From: Kiritimatiellia bacterium | GTDB taxonomy: Bacteria; Verrucomicrobiota; Kiritimatiellia; JAQICX01 | Length of the DNA stretch: 64,000 nucleotides | Direction: 5' to 3' | Assembly (NCBI GenBank): GCA_027858345.1 | Contig: JAQICX010000182.1 | Coordinates: 273 to 64,272, forward strand | Shown here: positions 18,186 to 63,151 of the stretch, piece by piece | Layout of the letters: the number at the start of each line of letters is the position of its first letter | Position numbering within the stretch: position 1 is the first letter of the stretch | Notes under the pieces: generated by a model | Seen by the model: the letters and a program-made list of their open reading frames with translations, nothing else | Databases searched by the model: none | What the model was told of the DNA's origin: nothing | Position numbers and translations under genes: made by a program

Positions 18186-18382
18186 AACATAATACCAAAA
18201 ATGGCTTTTAAAATTGAGCTAAAAAAAATCCGAGCCAACTGGAGGCAGCTACAATATGTGAAACATGGAAAAACTCTAATGGCATTCACAACACCTGTAG
18301 CCGAGTCGCTCCGGCTCTGGAAAATAAAATTTTCATGACTTTAAGACAGACACAGACCTGTAAAAAAATAGTTTGATAATAA

Positions 18383-20921: not shown

Positions 20922-21074
20922 CTTATATGCCCTTTCTATTATTCTGGTTCTACCAGAAATTTTACACTCTTTTCAAACCTATTATCAATGTGATAAAAAA
21001 CTGTTTTGTCTTATGCAATCTCTTCTCGTCTGTCATCGTCCGATGCTACAGACATTGTGTCTACAAAACAAACC

Positions 21075-21175
21075 CCTGTTCGCCAAAACTCCTCCCCGGC
21101 TAGCTTGCTAGTCCCGCTCTGCGGGAGGAGGTCACCTCGCGTGCGAGGTGGGAGGGTACTTACTTCTTCCTTAGA
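21075..21175. repeat. Stacked-hairpin GC-rich intergenic repeat (family 2: CTCCTCCC...GGGAGGAGG + CACCTCGC-gtg-CGAGGTG + GGGAGGGTACTTACTTCTTCC)
   Basis: Copies at 21075-21175, 22598-22672, 31385-31495, 31836-31960 and inverted at 50640-50745. Confidence 0.8.
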
Positions 21176-21421
21176 TATTTTGTTGCCACTCCTTAAAGTC
21201 GTTGCTTTAGCTTCGCCAAGGCCTGTCTTCGCTTCGCTACGGATGTTGATTATTAGATATTCAGTTTCCCTATGTTTTATAAAATTTTTGACAGTACCTA
21301 TATTATTCTATAACTTTAAAATCTCACTAACTCCATTTACCACGCTCCCAAAGAAAAACAGCTATCTACACCTTGAGCAGGCTTTAAAATTACGCAAACC
21401 GTTAGTTGTATTGCACAACGT

Positions 21422-21455
21422 CTGTAGCCGAGGTCCGCAGACCTCGGGAAAACAA
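21422..21455. repeat. CTGTAGCCGA + 8-bp-stem hairpin (GGTCcgcaGACC) + GGGAAAA module (family 1)
   Basis: Same module at 18295-18330, 43670-43700, 50851-50880 with different but self-complementary stems. Confidence 0.75.
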
Positions 21456-21480
21456 AGGTTAACAACCTCGCCCCTCAATC

Positions 21481-22398
21481 TTAATTTTCAAGATATTTCT
21501 GAGCATCAAGAGCAGCCATACACCCTGTGCCAGCAGCTACAATAGCCTGCTTATACACAGGATCAATAACATCTCCACAAGCAAATATACCAGGAATATT
21601 TGTCTTTGTTGTGCCAACCTCTATCTTTAGTAGTCCCCCTTCATTAACCTCAACCAAATCTTTAAAAGCCTCTATCTGAGGATCATGCCCTATTGCAGCA
21701 AAAATACCCTCACATTCAACCTCTAACTCTTCTCCCGTTTCAAGATTTTTTAAAACAGCACCAGCAACCATACCATTATCATCACCTTTTATTTTTGTAA
21801 TCACATAAGGAATAAGCCACTTAATCTTTTCCTGTGCTTTAGCCTTTTCAACCTCAATTGGATCTGCTCTCAAATACTCCCTGCGATGAACAATTGTTAC
21901 TTCATCAGCAAACCGTGTCAAAAACAAAGCATCCTCAATAGCTGTGTTTCCTCCACCAACAACTAAAACCTTACAATTTCTGTAAAACGCTCCATCGCAT
22001 GTTGCACATCCAGAAACACCTTTGCCATAAAACTCAGGCTCATTCTCAACAGGTAGACGCCTTGCAATAGCACCTGAGGCAACAATCAAACTCTTGGTCT
22101 CAATTTCTCGACCATCATCAGTCTTTACAACAATTATATCACCCTTTTTTGATACTCCAGAAACAGAAGCACTATCAAACCGTGCACCAAACTTCTCTGC
22201 CTGTGTTTTGAATTTATCAAGCAATTCAAATCCCGAAATCATATCAAATCCAGGATAATTTTCAACCTCTTGAGATACTACAAGCTGACCACCTGGTGAT
22301 GGTCCCTCAAAAATCAATGGACTCAACATCGCTCTAGCTGCATATATTGCCGCTGTTGCCCCCGCTGGTCCTGAACCAGCAATAATTAAATTCTCCAT
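21481..22398 (-). CDS. trxB: Thioredoxin-disulfide reductase
   Basis: 305 aa; FAD motif GSGPAGATAAIYAARA, redox-active CATCDG, NADPH motif VVGGGNTAIEDALFL. Confidence 0.9.
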   Translation of the reverse strand: MENLIIAGSGPAGATAAIYAARAMLSPLIFEGPSPGGQLVVSQEVENYPGFDMISGFELLDKFKTQAEKFGARFDSASVSGVSKKGDIIVVKTDDGREIETKSLIVASGAIARRLPVENEPEFYGKGVSGCATCDGAFYRNCKVLVVGGGNTAIEDALFLTRFADEVTIVHRREYLRADPIEVEKAKAQEKIKWLIPYVITKIKGDDNGMVAGAVLKNLETGEELEVECEGIFAAIGHDPQIEAFKDLVEVNEGGLLKIEVGTTKTNIPGIFACGDVIDPVYKQAIVAAGTGCMAALDAQKYLEN

Positions 22399-22597: not shown

Positions 22598-22672
22598 TAG
22601 TATGCAAAAACTCCTCCCGCTTTTAGGGGAGGTCACCTCGCCTGCGAGGTGGGAGGGGTACTTACTTCTTCC
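22598..22672. repeat. Stacked-hairpin repeat family 2 copy (CCTCCCgcttttaGGGGAGG + CACCTCGCctgCGAGGTG + GGGAGGGGTACTTACTTCTTCC)
   Basis: Read directly; near-identical 3' half to 21127-21170. Confidence 0.8.
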
Positions 22673-24949: not shown

Positions 24950-26314
24950 TCAATGCTCTAGAATTTTTCCTGTGGATGCATTGAGGTTTTCTATTGCAAG
25001 AATTCTAGACAATCGTTCTCTTGCCAAAGCTGACTCTGCTGCAACAGCGTCTGTTTGCACTTGATTCAACCGAGTCACAGAAACAAGACTGGCGTTATAC
25101 TCTTCCGTGACAACATTCTCTATCTCATCTGCCAACCTATATATTTCATCACTCTTCTGCAACGACAAATTCTGAATTTCAAGATTATCACTTGCTACTC
25201 TGACATCTGCAACAACATCAATCTGAGTTTTTCTGTACAAATCAGAAGCAGCTGAAGCATCTGCTTTTGTTGCTCGAACTTTCCCGTGTCTCATACCACC
25301 ATCAAAAAGATCCCATGATGCCACCACACCAACAAATGCTTCTGTATTTTCATCTTTGTTTAGGGCGTCAGTATCATCAACACCATTATATCCATAACGA
25401 CCTGTTGCAACTACAGTAGGCATATAACTACCTTTTTCTGCAGATACAGCTGCTTCAGCTTGATCCAATTCAAGCTCTTTCTGCAAAAGATCAGGACGAT
25501 GATCCACCGCATATAATATTTCTTTATCAAAATCCACTAAAAATTCTTTATACTCCTGCTCAAGATTTGAAACTGATTGAACATCGTTTGTAACAGTTCC
25601 ATCGTCAACCCCCATGAGTCTAGCCAAAGCAATTCTGGCTTGACGTTTAGACAATTCTGCAGCCAGTGCCTGGTTTTCAGAAGCAATTTTACGCATTTTA
25701 AAATTCATCACATCAGATCTTGATGCGGCACCTGCAAGATTTCTATCGCGAGTTTCTTTATAAAGCACCTCGTTCAACTTTGCAGTTTCAATTGCAATTC
25801 TCTGTTGTTCTCCGGCAAACAATACAGCCAAGTATGCTTGAGAAACTCCTTGAAGAAGAAGTCGCTGTGCATCAAGAGTAGAGTTTTCGCTTATTTCTTC
25901 TCCATATTTCGCAGCCATTATCCTATATTTACGGGATAAGCCATCAAATAGCAGCCATGAAACATCGACTCCTGCCTTATAATTGTCGTGAGAGCCTAAA
26001 GCTCCTTGGGAGCCGGGCACTTCTTCCATTCTGTAGGCTGAGCCATAGGCACTAACGGTAGGTAACCAAGCAGATTTTGCCTGTTGAGCAATCGCAGATG
26101 CAGCCTCAATACGTGTCATTGCTGCTTGCAGTCCAGGATTTCCGGACAAGGCAATTTCTTTTGCCTGTTTCAGTGTGAGAAGTCCATTAACAACCTCCCC
26201 TTTTTCTACAAAACTATCAGGTATACTTGCTGAGTCTTGAGCCGAAAGATTACTCACTGTCATAGGCAATGACAACCCAATTAAAATTATTATTATAGAT
26301 ATTTTATCTTTCAT
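24950..26314 (-). CDS. Outer-membrane efflux factor (TolC/OprM family) with its own signal peptide, currently in frame with the upstream RND gene
   Basis: C-terminal 454 aa of the 1476-aa ORF; begins MKDKISIIIILIGLSLPMTVSNLSAQ (signal peptide) and shows OMF coiled-coil/barrel repeats (…LFDGLSRKYRIMAAKY…, …LFDGGMRHGKVRATKADASAASDLY…). Confidence 0.75.
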   Translation of the reverse strand: MKDKISIIIILIGLSLPMTVSNLSAQDSASIPDSFVEKGEVVNGLLTLKQAKEIALSGNPGLQAAMTRIEAASAIAQQAKSAWLPTVSAYGSAYRMEEVPGSQGALGSHDNYKAGVDVSWLLFDGLSRKYRIMAAKYGEEISENSTLDAQRLLLQGVSQAYLAVLFAGEQQRIAIETAKLNEVLYKETRDRNLAGAASRSDVMNFKMRKIASENQALAAELSKRQARIALARLMGVDDGTVTNDVQSVSNLEQEYKEFLVDFDKEILYAVDHRPDLLQKELELDQAEAAVSAEKGSYMPTVVATGRYGYNGVDDTDALNKDENTEAFVGVVASWDLFDGGMRHGKVRATKADASAASDLYRKTQIDVVADVRVASDNLEIQNLSLQKSDEIYRLADEIENVVTEEYNASLVSVTRLNQVQTDAVAAESALARERLSRILAIENLNASTGKILEH

Positions 26315-29300
26315 AATTTTCTTTTTTCCTCTTCGTGTTCCAAAATCATAAAGTATAGGGACAACAAACAGTGTCAATATACCCGAAATCAAAATGCCAC
26401 CAGCGGAAGCAATACCAACACCATTTCTGGCTTCAGCGCCTATTCCTTGAGCCAAGCCCATTGGCAGCATGCCAAAGAAACCGGCAAATGTAATCATAAT
26501 AATTGGTCTCATCTGATCTCCAGCAGCAGTAATCATTGCTTTATGTACAGGCATTCCTTCTCTAAGATGTACATTGAGTTGTTCCATAATCAAAATTGCA
26601 TTGTTCACCACAATCCCAATAAGCATAACTATGCCCATAATCACAAACACAGATATACTCTCATTCATCAATAATAACGCCCAGAACACACCAATCAATC
26701 CAAGTGGAAGTGTAACTAAAATTAATGCTGGTTGTTTCCACGACTCCATAATCGCAGCCAGTGTCAAAATAACCAAAATGATAGCTAACAAACCTGCTTC
26801 ACCAAGACTTGCCTGGCTCTCTGCCATGTTTTCTGCATCGCCAGAAAAAATAATTTCATACCCAGGTGGTAAAAGCTGCTCTTTGTCAACATATGAAGCA
26901 ATAACCCCAATAGCTATTCCAAGAGGAAAATCAGGATTCAAATTACTTGTTAATTTTGTGACTCGCCTTTTGTCTCTACGAAGAATCTGCACAGGAGTGT
27001 TGACTTCCTCAAAATTCACAAACGATTCAACCGAAACTGGTTTGCCAGGAAGTCCCGGAACAGAGAATGATTTAACTTGATCTTTGCCTTGTATTTCTTC
27101 ATATTTAACAACAATATCATAATTTCTGTCACCTTGTTTAAATGTGCCAATCTCAATACCTTCAAGATTACCTCTCAATGACATTCCAAATGTAGTTGCA
27201 GAAATACCAAGATCACTGAAAATTGCTCTCTTAGGAAACATTTTGAGCTTATTCTTGCCCAGACGTACTGATGTGTCAACGTCGCTAAAGCCTGGATAAT
27301 TTTCACAATACTGCTTAATATTTAAAGATAAAGCATTAAGAACATCCAACTCATCACCAACAATATAAGCCTCAACAGGTGTGCTGATGCCTCCAATTAA
27401 CGATGGGATAAACGCCCCGGTTAAACAATCGGTTATACCCGTCAATCTGTTTCGAACAATCTCAAGCAAATCATAAATAGTTGCATCTCGTTCATCCCTT
27501 TCCAAAAATTTCAATTGAACTTGCCCAAGATATACACCTTCCGATGCCTGACCGGCAATACCTTGAATTTTGCCAACAGTCACTAGACTACTTGTAAGTC
27601 CTGGCAAATCATCAAACAGTTTTGCAATTTCCAGAACACGTCCAACGCTGTTGTCCAATGAATATGAGGTAGGAAACTCTAAACGAACTGTAATTGAACC
27701 CTTATCCAGATCAGGAAAGAAACTGCCACCAACAGCCTTTGCCGACTTCAAGGCAGACATAAACATTAAAACTACCGCAATAATAAAAAGTATTGCAAAA
27801 ATCTTTCTTTTTTCAAACAAACGCAATAGTTTTCTATATGCGCTGATAACCTTGTCAAGTCCGGCATTGAACTTGTTTTCAAAAAATGCAAGAACACCCT
27901 TGTTTTTTCGACTTGTTAAAAGCTTTGCACATAACATTGGTGTTAATGTGAAAGATATAAAGAGTGATACAAGAGTCATAATAAGCATTGTCAAAACCAA
28001 TGGTTTAAGAAACATTGCAACCATACCGCCCATCATAGCAATAGGAAGAAGCACAACACAATTTGTTCCAGCTGACGCTAAAACAGGAAGCCAGGAATCT
28101 GAGGCTCCAAGTCTCGCTGCCTCTTTTGGATCTTTACCCTGCGAAATGTGCTTGCTTATTGCCTCCATAACCACAATGGAATTGGTTACAAGAATACCCA
28201 CACTCATACCAATTGATATCAATGTTGACATATTCAATGTATAATTCATTAGCCCCATAAAGAAAAGACCAATAACAATCGTAAGTGGCATTGTTATACA
28301 TACAACAAACGTTGTTCTAATATTATAAAGAAACAAAAATAGAATCAATCCCGTGAGCACAACACCCATTGCAACATTTTCCCAAGCACTATCTACAGAT
28401 GCCTTGATAAACTTTCCCTCATCATTAACCCACTTAAGATCCATTCCTCCTGGTAATTGCTCCTTCAATTTTGAAAACTCTGACCGAACAGAATCAACAA
28501 CTTCAACAGCATTTGCATCCGCAAGCTTAACAATTTCAATTGCTATGCAAGATGCACCATCGAGAAAAGCCTTTTGCCTAATCTCTTCAGTTGTCATGAC
28601 AGCCTTGCCAACATCTTTCAAATATACCCGCTTACCATCAACATTTGCAACTTCCAGTTCATTAAAGTCTACAACTTCCAAAGGGTCAGCATCAAATTCA
28701 ACAGTATATTCAAAACCATTATCTTTGACTCTACCTGATGGAATCAAACCAATTGCTGAATTAATATTTTGAGCTACTATTCCAGAGGTCAGCCCTCTTG
28801 CAGCAAGTTTATCTCTATCTATAAGAATATGAACTTCACGCTTAGCACCACCAATCAGCGTACACTCTGCAACACCTGCAATGGACGACAACCGGTCTTT
28901 TAAAGTATTATCAGCATAATCATACAGATCGGCAATGGGCAAATCACCAGTCAATGCAAGCTTCACAACAGGAACGGCATTAACATCAAATTTTTCCACG
29001 ATAGGATCTTCAACCCCTGCAGGGAAATCACCAGCAATTAAACCAATTTTTTCTCGCACATCCATCGCTGCAATATCAATATCTGTACCATATTCAAACT
29101 CAAGAAACGTAAAGCACACATTTTCCATAGCTGTTGACTCAACATGTTTAATGCCATTGAGAGTCATCACTTTATCTTCAATTCTCTTTGCAACATCAGT
29201 CTCTATCTGTTCAGGACTTGCTCCGGGAAAAATTGTTTTAATCGTAATGATCGGTGCATCGATACTCGGAAGCATCTCCAAACCCATCTTACGATAAGTA

Positions 29301-29380
29301 TTGAACCCTAGTAAAACCAGGGCAATCAACAAACAAGACATCGCAATAGGACGCCTAATTGACGCATTTGATAAAAACAT
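26315..29380 (-). CDS. RND multidrug efflux transporter (AcrB/HAE1 family); lacks a stop codon and reads through an A6 tract into the OMF gene
   Basis: N-terminal 1022 aa of the 1476-aa ORF; 12-TM RND architecture, MFLSNASIRRPIAMSCLLIALVLLGF..., ends ...FGTRRGKKKI then MKDK. Confidence 0.85.
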
Positions 29381-31175: not shown

Positions 31176-31384
31176 ATCATTATTCCTTTATTTATCCTTC
31201 GGTTCTGTCAAAAGTTTGCAGGCTTCCGCCTTCGCAAAGCGAAGAATGACGCCCCTGGCGCTATCAGCCGTCATTCCTTCCAGCCTTCGCCGTCCATGCG
31301 TCGCTCTGCGAGCTATGCAGGAGGCGCTTGGGCTACGGCTGACAGGCCTTTGCGACATACAGGTGTTGTGTTTGCAAGTCAACT

Positions 31385-31495
31385 CTAGTCCGCAAAAGCT
31401 CCTCCCGCTTTTAGGGGAGGTGGCGATCCAGCTACTACTTTGCTTTAAGTCAAAAGCAAAGTAGTAGCTGGAGAGACGGAGGGGTACTGCCTTCA
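31385..31495. repeat. Stacked-hairpin repeat family 2 copy containing a perfect 19-bp-stem hairpin CCAGCTACTACTTTGCTTT-aagtca-AAAGCAAAGTAGTAGCTGG
   Basis: Read directly at 31412-31456; flanked by CCTCCCgcttttaGGGGAGG and GGAGGGGTACTGCC. Confidence 0.8.
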
Positions 31496-31835
31496 TCACT
31501 GAATATTCGAAGTCGGACACTTTCTTGTATTCTTACTATTAAAGCTTTCTTACAAAAACCAAAGATACATTTTTCTGACTTGCGGGTCATTTTCGCAAAC
31601 ACACGGTCATAATGCAAGAACTTTTTTTCAAAAAATTAAGAAAAACTGCTTTTTTGTCGATTATCTTGTTAAATACTAGGATGCTAGTTGATTTTCTTAC
31701 GTCAATATCTATTTATCACAGGCAAACACGGACTAACACACACAAGCGAATATCCAGCTTGGGTGTCGAGACATGGTCTCGCAAAGTGAAGGCTGAAAAC
31801 CTCGAGAAACTTGCAAATAAATTTGAGTCCGCCAA

Positions 31836-31960
31836 AGCTCCTCCCCGGCTAGCTTGCTAGTCCCGCAAAGCGGGAGAAGGTGGCAATCCCGCTACTACTT
31901 TGCCTTTTTTAAAAGCAAAGTGGAAGCGGGAGAGACGGAGGGGTATTCATTTTATTGGAT
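31836..31960. repeat. Stacked-hairpin repeat family 2 copy (extended CTCCTCCCCGGCTAGCTTGCTAGTCCCGCAAAGCGGGAGAAGG + degenerate long hairpin + GGAGGGGTA)
   Basis: Near-identical 5' half to 21084-21130 and to the reverse complement of 50690-50745. Confidence 0.8.
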
Positions 31961-41272: not shown

Positions 41273-41505
41273 ATGATAAATATGAAAAATAATTTTTTAA
41301 AGGCGGGGTCATCAGTCTTCGCCCAGCTATTAACAATATAATAAATCTTGTTAGTAGCTGGGCTACGCCAGACGCAGCGTACTTTGAAGGTAAACCCTAC
41401 AAAATACTTGCAAATCAAGGATTTAGCTTTGGTTGCAGCATCCGTAACTGTAGGGTCGGGGTCCGTGACCCCGCCAAAAAGGGTGTTCAACCGAAAAATC
41501 AAGGA
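41273..41505 (+). ncRNA. Copy 1 of a paired ~200-bp structured repeat (candidate small RNA gene or MITE) with TGATAAAT promoter-like box, nested hairpins and 10-bp terminal inverted repeat GGCGGGGTCA / TGACCCCGCC
   Basis: First 102 nt (41301-41402) identical to 59161-59262; 3' hairpin GGGGTC-cgt-GACCCC vs GGGGTG-ctt-CACCCC in copy 2 (compensatory). Overlapping ORFs 41239..41502(-) and 41348..41536(+) are judged spurious. Confidence 0.45.
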
Positions 41506-43618: not shown

Positions 43619-43787
43619 CACGGCTACAGAGTGAACTTTGTAAATTGACGGTTAAACTGTAGTTTCACTCTGTAGCCGACCTCAGCAGAGGTCGGGAACA
43701 CGGTTGAATCGAGGAATTAACGCTTAGCAACTTTTAGTCGAGAGTCCTGAGTCGTGAGTCAAATTGACATATAACATAACAGTTATG
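43619..43787. repeat. ~165-bp composite hairpin repeat (family 1 long form): 15-bp perfect inverted repeat CGGCTACAGAGTGAA/TTCACTCTGTAGCCG, CCGACCTC-agca-GAGGTCGG hairpin, GGGAA, then GAATTAACGCTTAGCAACTTTTAGTCGAGAGTCCTGAGTCGTGAGTCAAATTGACATATAACATA
   Basis: About 88% identical to 50808-50957. Confidence 0.8.
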
Positions 43788-43835: not shown

Positions 43836-44225
43836 ATGTCAAACGTTGCAGACAGATTACATAATGACAGATTAGTCGAACTACTAGGAATTGAAATACT
43901 TGATGAAAACGAACAATTTCCATCATGCCAGCTCAAAGTATGCAAGAAACACCTCAACGGTGTAGACTACACACAGGGTGGTGCAATTTTCACACTTGCG
44001 GACTACGCATTCGCAATTGCATCCAACACAGACCAACGCCTATCCCTCGGCATAAGCACAACAATGAATTTCTTCAAAGCAACCAAAGAAGGCGATATCC
44101 TCTACACAAAAACTCGCGAACTAAGCCGCACAAAAAAACTTTCAATCTACGAAGTTGAGATATACTGCGAAGATGCACTTATAGCAACCTTCACAGGCAC
44201 CGCATATAAAGTCGCCGATTGCTAG
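43836..44225 (+). CDS. PaaI/YbgC-type hotdog-fold thioesterase
   Basis: 129 aa; …GGAIFTLADYAFAIASN… hotdog thioesterase signature. Confidence 0.8.
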   Translation: MSNVADRLHNDRLVELLGIEILDENEQFPSCQLKVCKKHLNGVDYTQGGAIFTLADYAFAIASNTDQRLSLGISTTMNFFKATKEGDILYTKTRELSRTKKLSIYEVEIYCEDALIATFTGTAYKVADC

Positions 44226-44685
44226 AGAAGGGTAACGTAACGATCTTTCCCGCCTTACGGGACTAGCAGAGCCAGCACGCAAGTGTGAAGGTTTTCATTT
44301 GGTTTGCAACAAGATCCATCATCTTAGCTTATTTTTAATACGACCACAATGTGGAAATCCACCCTTTTCCGTACAGGTTAAACGTCCGCAGGGTAAGAGG
44401 CTTTAGTTTATCTAAAGCAACAGAGCATAGCGAAGTGACAATTTGGCAGTTCTATACCATTTTTATTTGGTCGACAACAGGTAGTCCTTTTACTTTCAAA
44501 AAGTGTAAAACTATCACAGGACAAGACGAGTTCTGCGTCCTAGTTTGTCATTGGCGTAATTGTACTGCGACATGGTTGCATTGTCAAATTGATTTTTGAC
44601 TTCTGTGACTAAATCTCGGTTTGGCTCGTAACTTCTCGTTACTTCAAAGTTGTTCGGGGCAGCTTCACTCCTTTTTCCCACTTTC

Positions 44686-46432: not shown

Positions 46433-47203
46433 CTACTGTAAATACCACACACCATTCGTTTTGATAGCGTACATCATGTAGCTCTCGTACCACTCTTCAT
46501 AAGCAGCTTTTAATTTGATCAAGGGAGTCTCATTATCTCTGCAAATTATAGCAATGTGATCATTATACGGACTAATGCTAGAAACAATGTCGCCTTCACA
46601 TTCTGTCCACTCCAAGCGAGATGTAGGACTCATGGCTATGGAATAGAAAAACATCGTACGCTTCTTTTGGACTGCCACAGAGCAGCCCTTCGCTTCTGCG
46701 AGATCTACCACCTGATAGTTGAGATTTGTTGCAAGAACTGGTTCCAAATTGCCATTTTTGAAAGCAGAAATCACCTCAACCACTAGTTGCGTGAGTGTGC
46801 TTTGATCCTCTTGTGTGATATTTGTTATTGAATCTGATTCCTGCCAACTCCATTGATGGTCAAATGTCGGGAGATAGAAATTTGTGAAAACCACAGAAGG
46901 AACACCGTTAGGAAGTATCCATTCACAAACGTTTGTGCTTGTACCATCGGTTGCAATTCTCTCAATACGTCCGGTAACACCTCCCTGTTGCATGATCACA
47001 ACGGAATTTGAGCCTTCAACCAAGTGAGTTGTAACGATCGGTGGCAGGGCATCCCCTTTGTTGAGATACTTGAAGCCGTTGATATAGACAGCTTCTTCAG
47101 CAGAACCTTCCGCATACAGAATATAGTCTTGCCCCGATGCCCCAATGGCACAAAAGATAAGGGATACAATCGTGATGCAAAAAGTCTGTGTAACGCGTTT
47201 CAT
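46433..47203 (-). CDS. Secreted hypothetical protein; start region contains an in-frame tandem duplication of RBS+ATG
   Basis: Likely start MKRVTQTFCITIVSLIFCAIGASGQ at 47203 (GGGAGG SD); ORF track extends to 47368 through two extra in-frame 45-nt repeat units each carrying SD+ATG. Confidence 0.65.
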   Translation of the reverse strand: MKRVTQTFCITIVSLIFCAIGASGQDYILYAEGSAEEAVYINGFKYLNKGDALPPIVTTHLVEGSNSVVIMQQGGVTGRIERIATDGTSTNVCEWILPNGVPSVVFTNFYLPTFDHQWSWQESDSITNITQEDQSTLTQLVVEVISAFKNGNLEPVLATNLNYQVVDLAEAKGCSVAVQKKRTMFFYSIAMSPTSRLEWTECEGDIVSSISPYNDHIAIICRDNETPLIKLKAAYEEWYESYMMYAIKTNGVWYLQ

Positions 47204-47289
47204 GTTTGATATTTCTCCCTGTTCAAAAGTTCTATGTGATAGTTTCATGTTTGATATTCCTCCCTGTACAAAAGTTCTATGTAATGCGT
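47198..47289 (-). repeat. Two tandem 46-bp units (about 93% identical) each containing SD GGGAGG and an in-frame ATG at the 5' end of the 46433 gene
   Basis: 47198-47243 tttcatgtttgatatttctccctgttcaaaagttctatgtgatag vs 47244-47289 tttcatgtttgatattcctccctgtacaaaagttctatgtaatgc. Confidence 0.85.
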
Positions 47290-47394
47290 GTAATGGTTCC
47301 ATGAATTTAGCATCAAACTTCATGGTTTTGCTCCAGGTAATATCTTTTATATACTTGACCCTTGTCAATTAATAATTAACCATTGATAATTATT

Positions 47395-50639: not shown

Positions 50640-50745
50640 GGTTTACAAGGAAGTACCCCTCCCACCTCGCAAGCGAGGTGACCTCCTCCCGCCTTGCGGG
50701 ACTAGCAAAGCCAGCCGGGGAGGAGCTTTGGCGGACTAAGGTTGA
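50640..50745. repeat. Inverted-orientation copy of stacked-hairpin repeat family 2
   Basis: Reverse complement reads ttagtccgccaaagCTCCTCCCCGGCTGGCTTTGCTAGTCCCGCAAGGCGGGAGGAGGTCACCTCGCTTGCGAGGTGGGAGGGGTACTTCC. Confidence 0.8.
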
Positions 50746-50807
50746 TTTGCAGTTTCCCGCGCCGAGGCGACGAGGCTATCCCGCCTTACGGGACTAGCAA
50801 AGCTAGC

Positions 50808-50957
50808 TGTGAACTTTGCAGGTTGACGGTTAAACTGTAGTTTCACCCTGTAGCCGAGTACCGTGGGCTCGGGAAAAAAGTTGAATCAGGGAATTAACGC
50901 TTAGCAACTTTTAGTCGTGAGTCCTGAGTCGTGAGTCACATTGACATATAACATAGG
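50808..50957. repeat. Second copy of the ~150-bp composite hairpin repeat (family 1 long form)
   Basis: About 88% identical to 43631-43787; hairpin stem here CCGAG…CTCGG instead of CCGACCTC…GAGGTCGG. Confidence 0.8.
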
Positions 50958-51044
50958 GGGCTAGCGTTGCTATCCCGCAAAGCGGGATCTGAAAAGTGCA
51001 TGAAATTTTTGAGAGAATAGAGATCAAAAATCAAGGAGAAGAAA

Positions 51045-59133: not shown

Positions 59134-59398
59134 TGATAAATCTGAAATATATGTTTTCAAGGCGGGGTCATCAGTCTTCGCCCAGCTATTAACAATATAA
59201 TAAATCTTGTTAGTAGCTGGGCTACGCCAGACGCAGCGTACTTTGAAGGTAAACCCTACAAACCACCTGCGAAGCAACCTTTTAGCTTTAATTTCAGCAT
59301 CCGTAACTTTCTTGTCACGCCGTAGTCTGGAACAGCGAAGGAGGAAGGGTCGGGGTGCTTCACCCCGCCGAAAAAGGTATTCAACCGAAAAATCAAGG
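59134..59398 (+). ncRNA. Copy 2 of the paired structured repeat (candidate sRNA gene/MITE), with ~35-nt internal insertion relative to copy 1
   Basis: 59161-59262 identical to 41301-41402; conserved upstream TGATAAAT (59134-59141) and downstream GGTATTCAACCGAAAAATCAAGGA; overlapping ORFs 58996..59277(-) and 59207..59428(+) judged spurious. Confidence 0.45.
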
Positions 59399-59414
59399 AA
59401 AGAATCAATTGATG

Positions 59415-61620: not shown

Positions 61621-61924
61621 CATCCTCCTTCGCAGACTCTGACTCCGGAGGACAGTCCACACGGGTTAACACAGATTTCATTTGTATAACCCCTTTATAA
61701 ACAGCACTTTACGTTTTTTCGGGATTTAACAACGCAATACAACTACATGACATACTTTCTTAGATATCATCTTCTGGGTGATATTGTTATAAAATAATTT
61801 TATGCAGGCTTAAAGTATTAAACAATTTGCTTGTGGATTTAATTATCAACATATTACATGAATATATTTACCCGTGAAAATCTGTCGGGTCTGTCCACCG
61901 GAGTCAGAGTCTGCGAAGAGGATG
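61621..61924. repeat. ~305-bp element bounded by 34-35-bp imperfect inverted repeats (CATCCTCCTTCGCAGACTCTGACTCCGGAGGACAG / CTGTCCACCGGAGTCAGAGTCTGCGAAGAGGATG); candidate invertible switch or MITE
   Basis: IR arms 61621-61655 and 61891-61924 (1 mismatch + 1 indel); 235-bp AT-rich non-coding core; lies between lpxA terminator and the 62094 gene. Confidence 0.6.
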
Positions 61925-62093: not shown

Positions 62094-63151
62094 ATGAAAA
62101 GATGTTTTATAATTTTCGCATTTCTATTTATTTTAGTTCCATATACCTACTGTAGTTTCTTTGAGTCTATAAAAAAGAGTATTGCAGAGAATACAGAAGC
62201 ACAAAAAAGATTGAACTTAAAAACATCAAAGCGGGGAAAAAGGGAAGCAAACCTGTTAATTCTTCCTATGCAACAAATTGGCTTGACAATTTTCATGACA
62301 GTCTATTCCTGACCATTCAGGGACAAATTACCAGAGCAGACACAATGTTTGTGCAGGATAAAGGTTCGGTTACTACACCACATTCTAGATTTGAACTTTC
62401 ACTGTATACCGAACTTGAACAAGGGAAGGGTAGTGCTAGCTTCGCTATTGACCCAAAATTTGACATTGATTTAGCTGTTCCAAATTTAGAAAGAACGCTT
62501 AAAATTTATGTTAATAACACACCTGTGGGTTCTCTGCCAGGTATTGACCCTGTTGATGAAGACAGAACTTTACATCTCGGTGTTAAATCTACTTTGGAAA
62601 AACCAGAGAGTTGGTTGCCAAAGTTTAGTACCAGCATTGGTGTTGATTGGAACTGGCCACCTGATCCATATGTTGAGCTTAATATCAGCAAATATCTGAA
62701 CTTCGGAAACCTTAGGCTTTATCCAAAGCAGTCATTTTGGTTAAACACAACAGATAGACTAAGTGAACAATCAACATTAAGAACGGAATATTGGCTTTCA
62801 AAGAATATGTTGACAACCCTATGGAGTTCCATAAAATACACACAAGACGATGGCTATTTCAATTGGGAACAATCACAATCTGTCATATATCGTTTAAACG
62901 ACTATGGTTTGGATATGGATACACATAAAATGCATTTTTGCAATTTAAAGTTTTCAATATTTGGGGACAATACGGTCGTTAAAACATATCGTTTGACAAT
63001 GCAGTATAAGTTTCCTATTTACAAAGACTGGATATTTCTGGAACTATCTCCTGAACTAAAATTTGAAAAAGAGACAGACTGGGAAACTATCAGAGTCTTT
63101 AGAGTTGGAATAAGTGCCTTGTTTTGGGGTCTTTACAATATGCCAAAGTAA
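62094..63151 (+). pseudogene. Beta-barrel-like outer-membrane protein gene split by a frameshift (signal peptide in frame 0, 62094-62312; mature domain in frame -1 through 63151); pseudogene, sequencing error or slippage-mediated phase variation
   Basis: Frame 0: MKRCFIIFAFLFILVPYTYCSFFESIKK…; frame -1 is open from 62165 and reads …ATNWLDNFHDSLFLTIQGQITRADTMFVQDKGS… to …FWGLYNMPK; overlap zone contains A6 (62171-62176), A6 (62203-62208) and G4A5G3 (62234-62245) tracts. Confidence 0.55.

Follow-up and report, generated by a model that had tools for sequence, protein, structure and literature searches.

Small mosaic hairpin repeats dispersed through the intergenic DNA of an uncultured Victivallales clade

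The 64,000-nucleotide (nt) stretch of contig JAQICX010000182.1 analyzed here (the window) contains short GC-rich segments that fold into stacked hairpins between genes, one of them near 21.1 kb, and these segments raise the question of whether they are a local duplication, parts of unrecognized genes, RNA signals of their neighbors, or copies of a dispersed element. On balance, we think it likely that they represent a new lineage-specific family of small noncoding mosaic repeats, similar in kind to repetitive extragenic palindromes (REP) and bacterial interspersed mosaic elements (BIME), found between the genes of an uncultured Victivallales (Lentisphaerota) clade. The analysis established the dispersal of the repeat across genomes, covariation in its second hairpin, the free combination of its modules, its presence or absence at orthologous sites, and the splitting of one operon, and it also established that the DNA is noncoding and matches no known RNA family. 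These findings extend REP/BIME-type biology to Lentisphaerota, a phylum of the PVC group.

Five copies, a constant frame and a variable hairpin

The window has a mean GC content of about 38%, and we confirmed the five GC-rich stretches that a first-pass annotation of this DNA had reported as copies of one repeat at 21.1, 22.6, 31.4, and 31.9 kb and, inverted, at 50.65 kb (copies A to E, respectively). Self-BLAST of the window linked the five to one another, with B matching A at 96% over 47 nt, D matching A at 97% over 37 nt, C matching B at 97% over 30 nt, D matching C at 86% over 69 nt, and E matching A, B, and D at 91 to 97% in inverted orientation. The hairpin-2 motif CACCTCGCnnGCGAGGTG occurs three times in the window versus 0 times in 100 shuffles, and CTCCTCCCSG occurs eight times versus 1.07 expected. 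A covariance model built solely from copies of other genomes (R1) recovered exactly copies A to E from the window and no others, whether its filters were on or off; R1 can be used to mask the family or take a census of it and as a marker of this uncultured lineage.

We read each copy in the orientation 5'-CTCCTCCC...GGAGGGGTA-3'. The core of about 64 nt, AAAG(TG)-CTCCTCCCC-loop-GGGGAGG-T-[hairpin 2]-GGAGGGGTA, consists in order of a short 5' extension, segment a (CTCCTCCCC), loop 1, segment b (GGGGAGG), a single T, hairpin 2, and segment c (GGAGGGGTA). The 5' extension varies (CCAAAGTG, TCGCAAGTG, or GTATTAG elsewhere; CCGCCAAAG in the window). Segments a and b pair to form hairpin 1, itself nearly invariant, and the polypyrimidine/polypurine frame, CTCCTCCCC...GGGGAGG-T...GGAGGGGTA, varies little across copies and also clamps hairpin 2. 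In its plain form, loop 1 is 6 to 8 nt long (tgttta, taaatta, ttgccaa, or gcttttag); in A, D, E, and five copies outside the window it is instead a 27-nt double hairpin, GCTAGCnnGCTAGtCCCGCnnnGCGGG, and in three other copies it holds unrelated inserts of 30 to 80 nt. Other mini-hairpin repeats can be accommodated in the loop of hairpin 1, which is a permissive site. The double hairpin is also found alone, outside any frame at 50960..50986 (+ strand; GCTAGCgttGCTAtCCCGCaaaGCGGG), in slightly divergent form at 50779..50803 (- strand; CCCGCcttaCGGGaCTAGCaaaGCTAGC) and at 44248..44276 (- strand, directly 3' of the stop codon of the gene at 43836-44225), and beyond the window at L010:298-325 and L049:3336-3363 (L numbers denote the loci of other genomes and metagenomes), and it is therefore an independent module rather than a private part of the repeat.

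Hairpin 2, clamped between the T and GGAGGGG, is always a hairpin, and it took 23 distinct sequences of 17 to 56 nt in the 46 copies that could be parsed of 56 distinct ones. Short versions include CACCTCGC-gt-GCGAGGTG, GTCCGAGC-tt-GCGAGGAC, GTCGCGC-gaa-GCGTGAC, GGCAGGC-gta-GCCTGAC, GGCATGC-gca-GCATGAC, and GTTCGAG-aga-CGAGAAC, while long versions, among them those of copies C and D, have stems of 20 to 25 bp. Some subfamilies have a third hairpin, in which segment c pairs with a downstream CCCCTCCC, and a degenerate periodic TTGGAYATTG run lies 3' of many copies.

The pairing of these segments is conserved. In a model-based alignment, 92.6% of cells held standard pairs, compared to 84% in shuffles, and pairing fell to 45 to 55% when the 3' partners were slid by 1 to 3 columns. 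Changes on both sides were seen at 9 of the 15 pairs overall and at 6 of the 7 pairs of hairpin 2, counts that overstate the number of independent events because the copies are related by descent. Hairpin 2 covaries, its sequence varying while its pairing is kept. The G.G mismatch in hairpin 1 of the common CTCCTGCCC subfamily is uncompensated and looks like an inheritance from a master copy and not like the result of selection copy by copy. In a divergent copy at L055:6894-6957, both hairpins show compensated changes (CCTCTC/GAGAGG and GACCTCGC/GCGAGGTC). This copy also led us to reject an intramolecular triple helix, in which segment c (GGAGGGG) would mirror segment b (GGGGAGG) with hairpin 2 as the linker, since its segment b is GAGAGG with a compensated segment a while its segment c is GTGGGGG, so that the mirror is lost.

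Within the window, copy A (21079..21163, + strand; R1 score, 54.1 bits; E = 3.6e-16) is of the extended form, with segment a (CTCCTCCC) at 21089-21096, the nested double hairpin (GCTAGCttGCTAGtCCCGCtctGCGGG) at 21099-21125, segment b (GGGAGGAG) at 21123-21130, hairpin 2 (CACCTCGC/GCGAGGTG) at 21133-21150, and segment c (GGGAGGGTA) at 21150-21158. Copy B (22601..22664, + strand; 71.4 bits; E = 2.6e-22), located 102 nt 3' of the purM stop codon, is of the short form, with hairpin 1 (CCTCCC-gcttttag-GGGAGG) at 22613-22632, hairpin 2 at 22634-22651, and segment c (GGGAGGGGTA) at 22651-22660. Copy C (31389..31490, + strand; 28.7 bits; E = 3.8e-07) lies between divergent TetR-family and ribonucleotide reductase genes and combines a short hairpin 1 (31401-31420) with a long hairpin 2 and segment c (GGAGGGGTA) at 31478-31486; its RNA fold has a z score of -6.6. 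The perfect hairpin previously placed at 31412-31456 in this copy does exist, but its arms are 20 bp long and are found at 31427-31446 and 31453-31472. Copy D (31828..31949, + strand) has an extended hairpin 1 with the nested module at 31848-31874, long hairpin-2 arms at 31887-31907 and 31911-31931 that are 86% complementary, and segment c (GGAGGGGTA) at 31937-31945, and its R1 score is just 11.2 bits because of the insertions in both of its loops. Copy E (50650..50735, - strand; 57.3 bits) is an inverted copy of the extended form located 38 nt 3' of the trpA stop codon, with hairpin 2 at 50663-50680 and the nested module at 50688-50715. Sequence and inverted-repeat analyses thus bear out the short and extended forms of the first module and the short/long swap of the second that the first-pass annotation had described; the common 3' flank needs a small correction and is GGAGGGGTA, with copy A one G short (GGGAGGGTA) and with AC, not G, in front of the flank in C and D.

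Dispersal, gain and loss across the lineage

An exact 21-nt pattern that spans hairpin 2 and the 3' flank was found at 14 loci of one uncultured Victivallales metagenome-assembled genome (MAG; CAYTUX01) and in 15 low-GC metagenome contigs (10 from Ga0307987, 4 from Ga0209414, and L003, a duplicate of L018), and the flanks of the matched loci are unrelated to one another. We rejected the remaining matches, in GC-rich Actinomycetota and similar genomes, as chance, as they have longer loops and the rest of the element is missing. Across these loci and the window, 260 kb in all, R1 identified 58 copies, including about 30 that the search pattern had not picked. The window has 5 copies in 64 kb, and unselected copies in the MAG loci occur at about 1 per 6 kb, a value biased upward by clustering. 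Overall, there is roughly one copy per 6 to 13 kb in the intergenic DNA of the clade. With copies in the Victivallales MAG and in several metagenome populations, this is a dispersed, structured, modular intergenic family, as the first-pass annotation had proposed, and not a local duplication. Since the family is present in both the window and its relatives, and the window TrxB is 78 to 89% identical to its orthologues in related contigs, the repeat is common to organisms about 20% apart in protein sequence. Victivallales is an order of Lentisphaerota. The window derives from a metagenome population sequenced by JGI. One related contig is 100% identical to a MAG contig (L034 = L053), and a comparison of L002 with the window across copy A gave 35 differences, all at a contig end or scaffold gap and hence not informative on population single-nucleotide polymorphisms. 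At L031:6726-6791, C11-TTTTT-G9 homopolymers take the place of hairpin 1 in one copy, which is probably an artifact of MAG assembly or sequencing.

Once ORFs (open reading frames) that overlap a copy are set aside, all copies lie between long ORFs; otherwise, copies were spanned only by ORFs of 90 to 166 amino acids (aa), at five loci. A scan of the whole window with Rfam at gathering thresholds detected one tRNA only and matched no copy, and permissive Rfam scans of the copies yielded only microRNA-hairpin noise far below threshold. Scans of viral contigs and sensitive BLAST of plasmids gave no match to the element. In the literature, we found no paper on intergenic repeats in Victivallales and no report of REP/BIME-type repeats in Lentisphaerota.

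Orthologous sites gave evidence of both turnover and retention. The spacer between trxB and the S49 peptidase gene is 559 nt long in the window (20922-21480) versus 18 to 20 nt in five relatives (L050-L054), and in the alignment one inserted block of about 540 nt accounts for the difference. It lies between the trxB stop codon and the S49 ribosome-binding site and includes copy A together with AT-rich DNA and a GTAG-type hairpin. This block is a derived mosaic insertion that split the tight trxB-S49 pair; the S49 gene must therefore have a new promoter or rely on read-through. Repeats thus remodel gene organization in this lineage, having placed a tight pair 559 nt apart. R1 found no copy in 49 kb of the relatives' trxB-S49 loci, even though one of these loci belongs to the copy-rich MAG. 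The purM-trxB spacers of the relatives, where the window has copy B, contain other repeats, one of which, at L053, belongs to a 158- to 176-nt family of the window. Elsewhere, L011 carries a copy where L031 has unrelated DNA.

Copies are also retained. The trpA-SNF spacer has a copy in the same orientation in the window (copy E, extended) and in L016 (short form), where the flanking proteins are 73 to 80% identical and the element is the sole part of the spacer that can be aligned. In L013 and L046, a copy directly follows the same gene, but hairpin 2, loop 1, and the flank differ. Since about one-fifth of the spacers are occupied, independent insertions into the same spacer may have occurred.

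The arrangement of neighboring copies suggests that copies recombine with each other. Adjacent tandem copies with the same frame have different hairpin-2 types in L032 (7697/7858) and in L015. The 1.6-kb contig L018 (1-1665) contains five full or partial copies, including a head-to-head hybrid palindrome of two hairpin-1 halves (AAGTACTCCTGCCC-tgttta-GGGGAGGAGTACTT) and a duplicated 126-nt unit bounded by hairpin-1 halves, the latter of which suggests recombination at hairpin 1. The earlier idea that the repeats could act as recombination hot spots fits this module shuffling and the L018 hybrid. Three tandem copies about 105 to 135 nt apart, with degenerate periodic TTGGAYATTG motifs between them, make up an array at L015:3840-4143; a sequence that is tRNA-like in appearance adjoins it at about L015:3600-3640.

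Mobilization, transcription and rival explanations

A tblastn search gave a chance match to a split Y1_Tnp gene, a pseudogene at L043:10-961 (PF01797, E = 8e-6). Homologues of about 355 aa occur as several paralogues in the clade, in the same populations as the repeat, and some have been named RayT by JGI, after the REP-associated tyrosine transposases (RAYT). We collected seven RAYT-like loci (L043, L053, and L055-L060, with L056 a duplicate of L055), in which the other genes located were at L053:1-660, L055:4001-4987, L057:73-1137, and L058:4001-5068. The flanks, read in five loci (L043, L053, L055, L057, and L058), are AT-rich, and adjacency to such a gene was rejected as a link to mobilization, as none of the RAYT-like genes collected is flanked by the element. 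A motif, GGCGGAGCTTGC, lies 40 to 60 nt 3' of the RAYT-like gene in L053, L055, L056, and L057, with a related GGCGGAGCTTAC in L058, and it is not dispersed. The RAYT-like gene of L055 is bracketed by two near-identical AAAGCGGTAAC...TTACCGCTTT hairpins. An alignment of 22 to 58 copies had no REP-type GTAG or GTGG (GT[AG]G) head at the foot of a palindrome. Most copies are single, and the pairs comprise about eight direct tandem and about four inverted ones. Membership of the repeat in the REP-RAYT system fails on three features, namely, the GTAG head, the inverted doublets, and the repeat-flanked RAYT gene.

We asked how copies are placed relative to genes in the 33 cases where both neighbor genes were visible. 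Of those flanked by co-directional genes, 18 have the element antisense to the genes and 6 have it in the sense direction; 6 copies lie between convergent genes and 3 between divergent ones (copies C and D of the window and L032:3509). Antisense copies are usually nearer to the upstream stop codon (17 to 320 nt) than to the next start codon, so the upstream mRNA often carries the reverse complement: UACCCCUCC, hairpin 2', ACCUCCCC, the loop, and GGGGAGGAG. In the gene-sense direction, the 8 nt that follow the last stem include at least 5 T residues in 7 of 55 copies, versus 12 of 55 on the other strand, a terminator consensus scan in the gene-sense direction flagged only copy B of the window, and the lineage has canonical A-tract/hairpin/T-tract terminators elsewhere. 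These data give poor support to the terminator role that the first-pass annotation had suggested, at least for canonical termination. Its suggestion of an mRNA stabilizer or 3' stem-loop fares better in one respect, the approximately 3:1 antisense placement near the upstream stop codon, but copies C and D are between divergent gene starts, and the hairpin-2 strand predicted to fold better is mostly not the mRNA strand.

This strand asymmetry comes from the irregularities of hairpin 2. On the forward strand they are G.A pairs (including tandem CGAG/CGAG), G.T pairs, and GCGNAGC apices (8 copies), and on the reverse strand the same positions become pyrimidine-pyrimidine or A.C mismatches. With DNA energy parameters, the forward strand was at least as stable as the reverse in the predictions for 9 of 9 hairpin-2 types. 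CGAG repeats in DNA are reported to form tandem sheared G.A pairs. GCGNAGC is an extraordinarily stable DNA mini-hairpin motif (PMC13037366), and d(GNA) loops with a C-G closing pair are very stable (PMC3201870). That the strand predicted to fold better is mostly not the mRNA strand points to a requirement at the DNA level, for example, a single-stranded intermediate, and weakens the case for hairpins kept to serve mRNA; the asymmetry offers a testable handle on DNA-level versus RNA-level selection. The GCGGAGC apex of the nested module is on the opposite strand, as one would expect of a unit inserted separately. The orientation data did not reconcile with a simple lagging-strand-template model. 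A strand bias in hairpin 1 was also considered and gave no signal, most of its C.A cells reflecting a register shift in the long forms. We likewise set aside a CsrA-sponge or anti-Shine-Dalgarno function, considered on the basis of the GGA/GGAGG content, given that most GGA motifs are base paired and that copies do not cluster in one transcript but are scattered.

BIMEs combine few motifs in mosaics and are extragenic, often 3' of genes. Like the REP/BIME sequences of Escherichia coli and other Enterobacteria, the Victivallales repeat is a short, GC-rich, imperfect palindrome present extragenically in many copies and mosaic motif combinations, placed after genes or between convergent genes at sites that differ between relatives, and, like them, it is expected to give rise to 3' stem-loops in mRNA. 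It differs in its host phylum, in the absence of a GTAG-type head, in its two or three stacked hairpins within a constant CCTCC/GGAGG frame with a variable middle hairpin, and in the excess of direct tandem over inverted pairs (about 8:4). What sets it apart is a constant frame, a middle hairpin that varies in sequence but is paired in every copy, and the nesting of modules in the loop. As in BOX elements of Streptococcus pneumoniae, which consist of boxA, a variable number of boxB modules, and boxC and are intergenic with a stable predicted structure, the build is modular; sequence and host are unrelated, however, and BOX modules are linear, not loop nested, with no variable hairpin cassette in a fixed frame. 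We know of no dedicated transposase for BOX elements. Tiny hairpin repeats were reportedly described by Elhai et al. in 2008 in heterocyst-forming cyanobacteria, both alone and nested inside other repeats; the likeness to such small dispersed repeats and nested miniature inverted-repeat transposable elements (MITEs) lies in the nested mosaics and follows from the nested-module result, while sequences and taxa differ. Rho-independent terminators share a GC-rich stem-loop 3' of a gene, and copy B and a few more show a run of U residues when read in the gene-sense direction, but the repeat copies are near identical at unrelated loci, some are between divergent promoters, and most have no U-tract. 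REPIN-RAYT systems (Bertels and Rainey; PMC3116915, PMC5581495) likewise involve nonautonomous hairpin repeats that persist in a lineage with RAYT-type Y1 (IS200-like) genes in the same populations; here, though, the RAYT-like genes are not flanked by the repeat and inverted doublets are in the minority.

For the REP/BIME-like mosaic family that we favor, one can picture copies being spread by a DNA-level process that needs folded hairpins, either a trans-acting HUH/Y1 enzyme that would recognize single-stranded hairpin DNA, as in REP-RAYT, or template switching at hairpins. Shared frames would permit short-patch conversion that swaps hairpin-2 and loop modules. Most retained copies would then sit just 3' of a gene whose mRNA carries their reverse complement, and stacked GC-rich stem-loops might act there as 3' barriers or weak attenuators, by analogy with a REP of E. 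coli, which is a partial terminator and also stabilizes upstream mRNA (bioRxiv 10.64898/2026.03.23.713779). Stem-loops behind genes could be a by-product or secondary benefit, with the hairpins mattering for propagation or retention. Taken alone, this mobilization mechanism is a tentative proposal about which we have considerable doubt. Several observations weigh against our reading. R1 finds no copy beside the RAYT-like genes in the seven loci, the nearest being 1.9 kb away in L055, and no mobilizing enzyme is linked to the element, the Y1 enzymes being candidates through co-occurrence alone. No consistent terminal inverted repeats or target-site duplication are seen in the 58 aligned copies, orthologous spacers being too diverged for clean empty/filled pairs. 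At two orthologous sites, a copy has persisted despite about 20% divergence in protein sequence, which could reflect selection in place and not selfish spread. With respect to the proposed benefit for transcripts, most copies are without a U-tract, and the predicted strand asymmetry of hairpin 2 speaks against a role in mRNA as what selection has acted on.

An alternative view, under which each copy is kept in place by selection for its neighbor genes as a cis-acting RNA signal (for example, for termination, attenuation, or stabilization of 3' ends) and the family is not mobile DNA, would account for the 3:1 orientation bias and closeness to the upstream stop codon, for the trpA-SNF copy that was retained while the remainder of its spacer diverged beyond alignment, for the copy directly after the same gene in L013 and L046, for the hairpin followed by UUUUU of copy B in the gene-sense direction, and for the kept pairing of hairpin 2. 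We nevertheless regard it as unlikely, given that copy A is in a derived insertion of about 540 nt missing from five relatives with a tight trxB-S49 pair, that the relatives' purM-trxB spacers hold other repeats and copies C and D are between divergent gene starts, that a U-rich gene-sense tail is found in just 7 of 55 copies in a lineage with canonical terminators elsewhere, that the frames are near identical at dozens of unrelated loci, unlike independently evolved terminators, and that the CTCCTGCCC variant with its uncompensated G.G mismatch was inherited as a subfamily. There is a small chance that the repeat is a hairpin-based mobile or recombining unit of another kind, in which the fixed CCTCC/GGAGG frame would serve for docking and the hairpin clamped within it would be a replaceable cassette, either swapped at its site or put there by an enzyme reading one single DNA strand. 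This idea derives from the extra-stable single-stranded DNA motifs that the cassettes use on that strand (GCGNAGC mini-hairpins and CGAG tandem G.A pairs), from the finding that one frame holds different cassettes, both at an orthologous site (L013 versus L046) and in adjacent tandem copies, and from the lack of linkage to RAYT-like genes.

The size of about 64 to 130 nt, the intergenic sites, and the presence/absence differences would also fit a MITE, that is, an insertion sequence shortened by deletion that a DDE transposase would mobilize via terminal inverted repeats, and the outer flanks have a weak inverted similarity (ATCCAAAG 5' versus CATTGGAT 3'). The 58 aligned copies do not have the consistent terminal inverted repeats or target-site duplication of such elements, the flanking extensions vary by subfamily (CCAAAGTG, TCGCAAGTG, GTATTAG, and CCGCCAAAG), and about 390 kb contained no parent insertion sequence with these ends, which makes a MITE improbable. 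Very improbable, in our judgment, are multicopy small RNA genes transcribed from the forward strand of the element: hairpin 2 is predicted to fold best on this strand and covaries, and the forward tail is somewhat richer in T (12 of 55 copies with at least 5 T residues in 8 nt), but there is no conserved upstream promoter, flanks are unrelated between loci, and there is no Rfam match; direct tandem arrays, inverted pairs, head-to-head hybrids, and loops that take insertions of 26 to 80 nt are found; and gain and loss at orthologous sites is atypical of RNA genes. As for protein coding, the ORFs at 21006-21545 and 31188-31520 both exist, and the former was called by JGI as a 179-aa gene of the same contig. 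A Pfam search left both without a match even at E ≤ 1, the DNA of 21006-21545 is missing from five relatives and this ORF overlaps the 3' end of trxB on the opposite strand, and no reading frame of the repeat is conserved between copies, the distance from a flanking ATG motif to the core also varying. We give almost no credence to these ORFs as real genes, and they are best read as spurious, as the first-pass annotation had it; the repeat explains such false gene calls in public metagenome annotation. A small reverse-strand ORF from ATGATGAATGAAGGA to the hairpin-1 loop was rejected as well, as its frame differs between copies.

Neighboring repeats and other features of the window

The window contains other repeat families. 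GTAG-headed hairpins (CTGTAGCCGAGG...CCTCGGGAAAA and GTAGGGTCGGGG...CCCCGCC) at 18294-18324, 21421-21453, 43669-43701, 50847-50879, 41441-41480, and about 59335-59375 form a separate family that is far closer to classical REP than the repeat described above. A repeat made up of about 175 nt plus 54 nt, 89 to 91% identical between copies, is present twice, with the longer part at 41274-41449 and 59134-59308 and the shorter at 41452-41505 and 59346-59399. It is also present at L053:3440-3600, in the purM-trxB spacer of a relative, and is therefore another mobile intergenic family found across species. A 148-nt repeat (43631-43778 and 50809-50955; 87% identity) includes a GTAG hairpin and a AGTCGTGAGTCCTGAGTCGTGAGTC periodic motif, and its 50.8-kb copy adjoins copy E in a spacer that is almost all repeats. 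Another hairpin family is represented by a 28-nt inverted repeat (96% identity, 235-nt spacer) at 61628-61655 and 61891-61918, upstream of the gene at 62345-63151.

Two features of coding regions were also observed. At 47197-47285, a 44-nt tandem duplication (93% identity, 45 nt start to start) lies inside the ORF at 46433-47368 on the opposite strand. The gene at 24950-29380 (- strand) encodes an unusual 1,476-aa protein in which an AcrB-type RND transporter (residues 4 to 1011) is fused to an OEP/TolC-like domain (residues approximately 1070 to 1257), and the same gene is present in L001.

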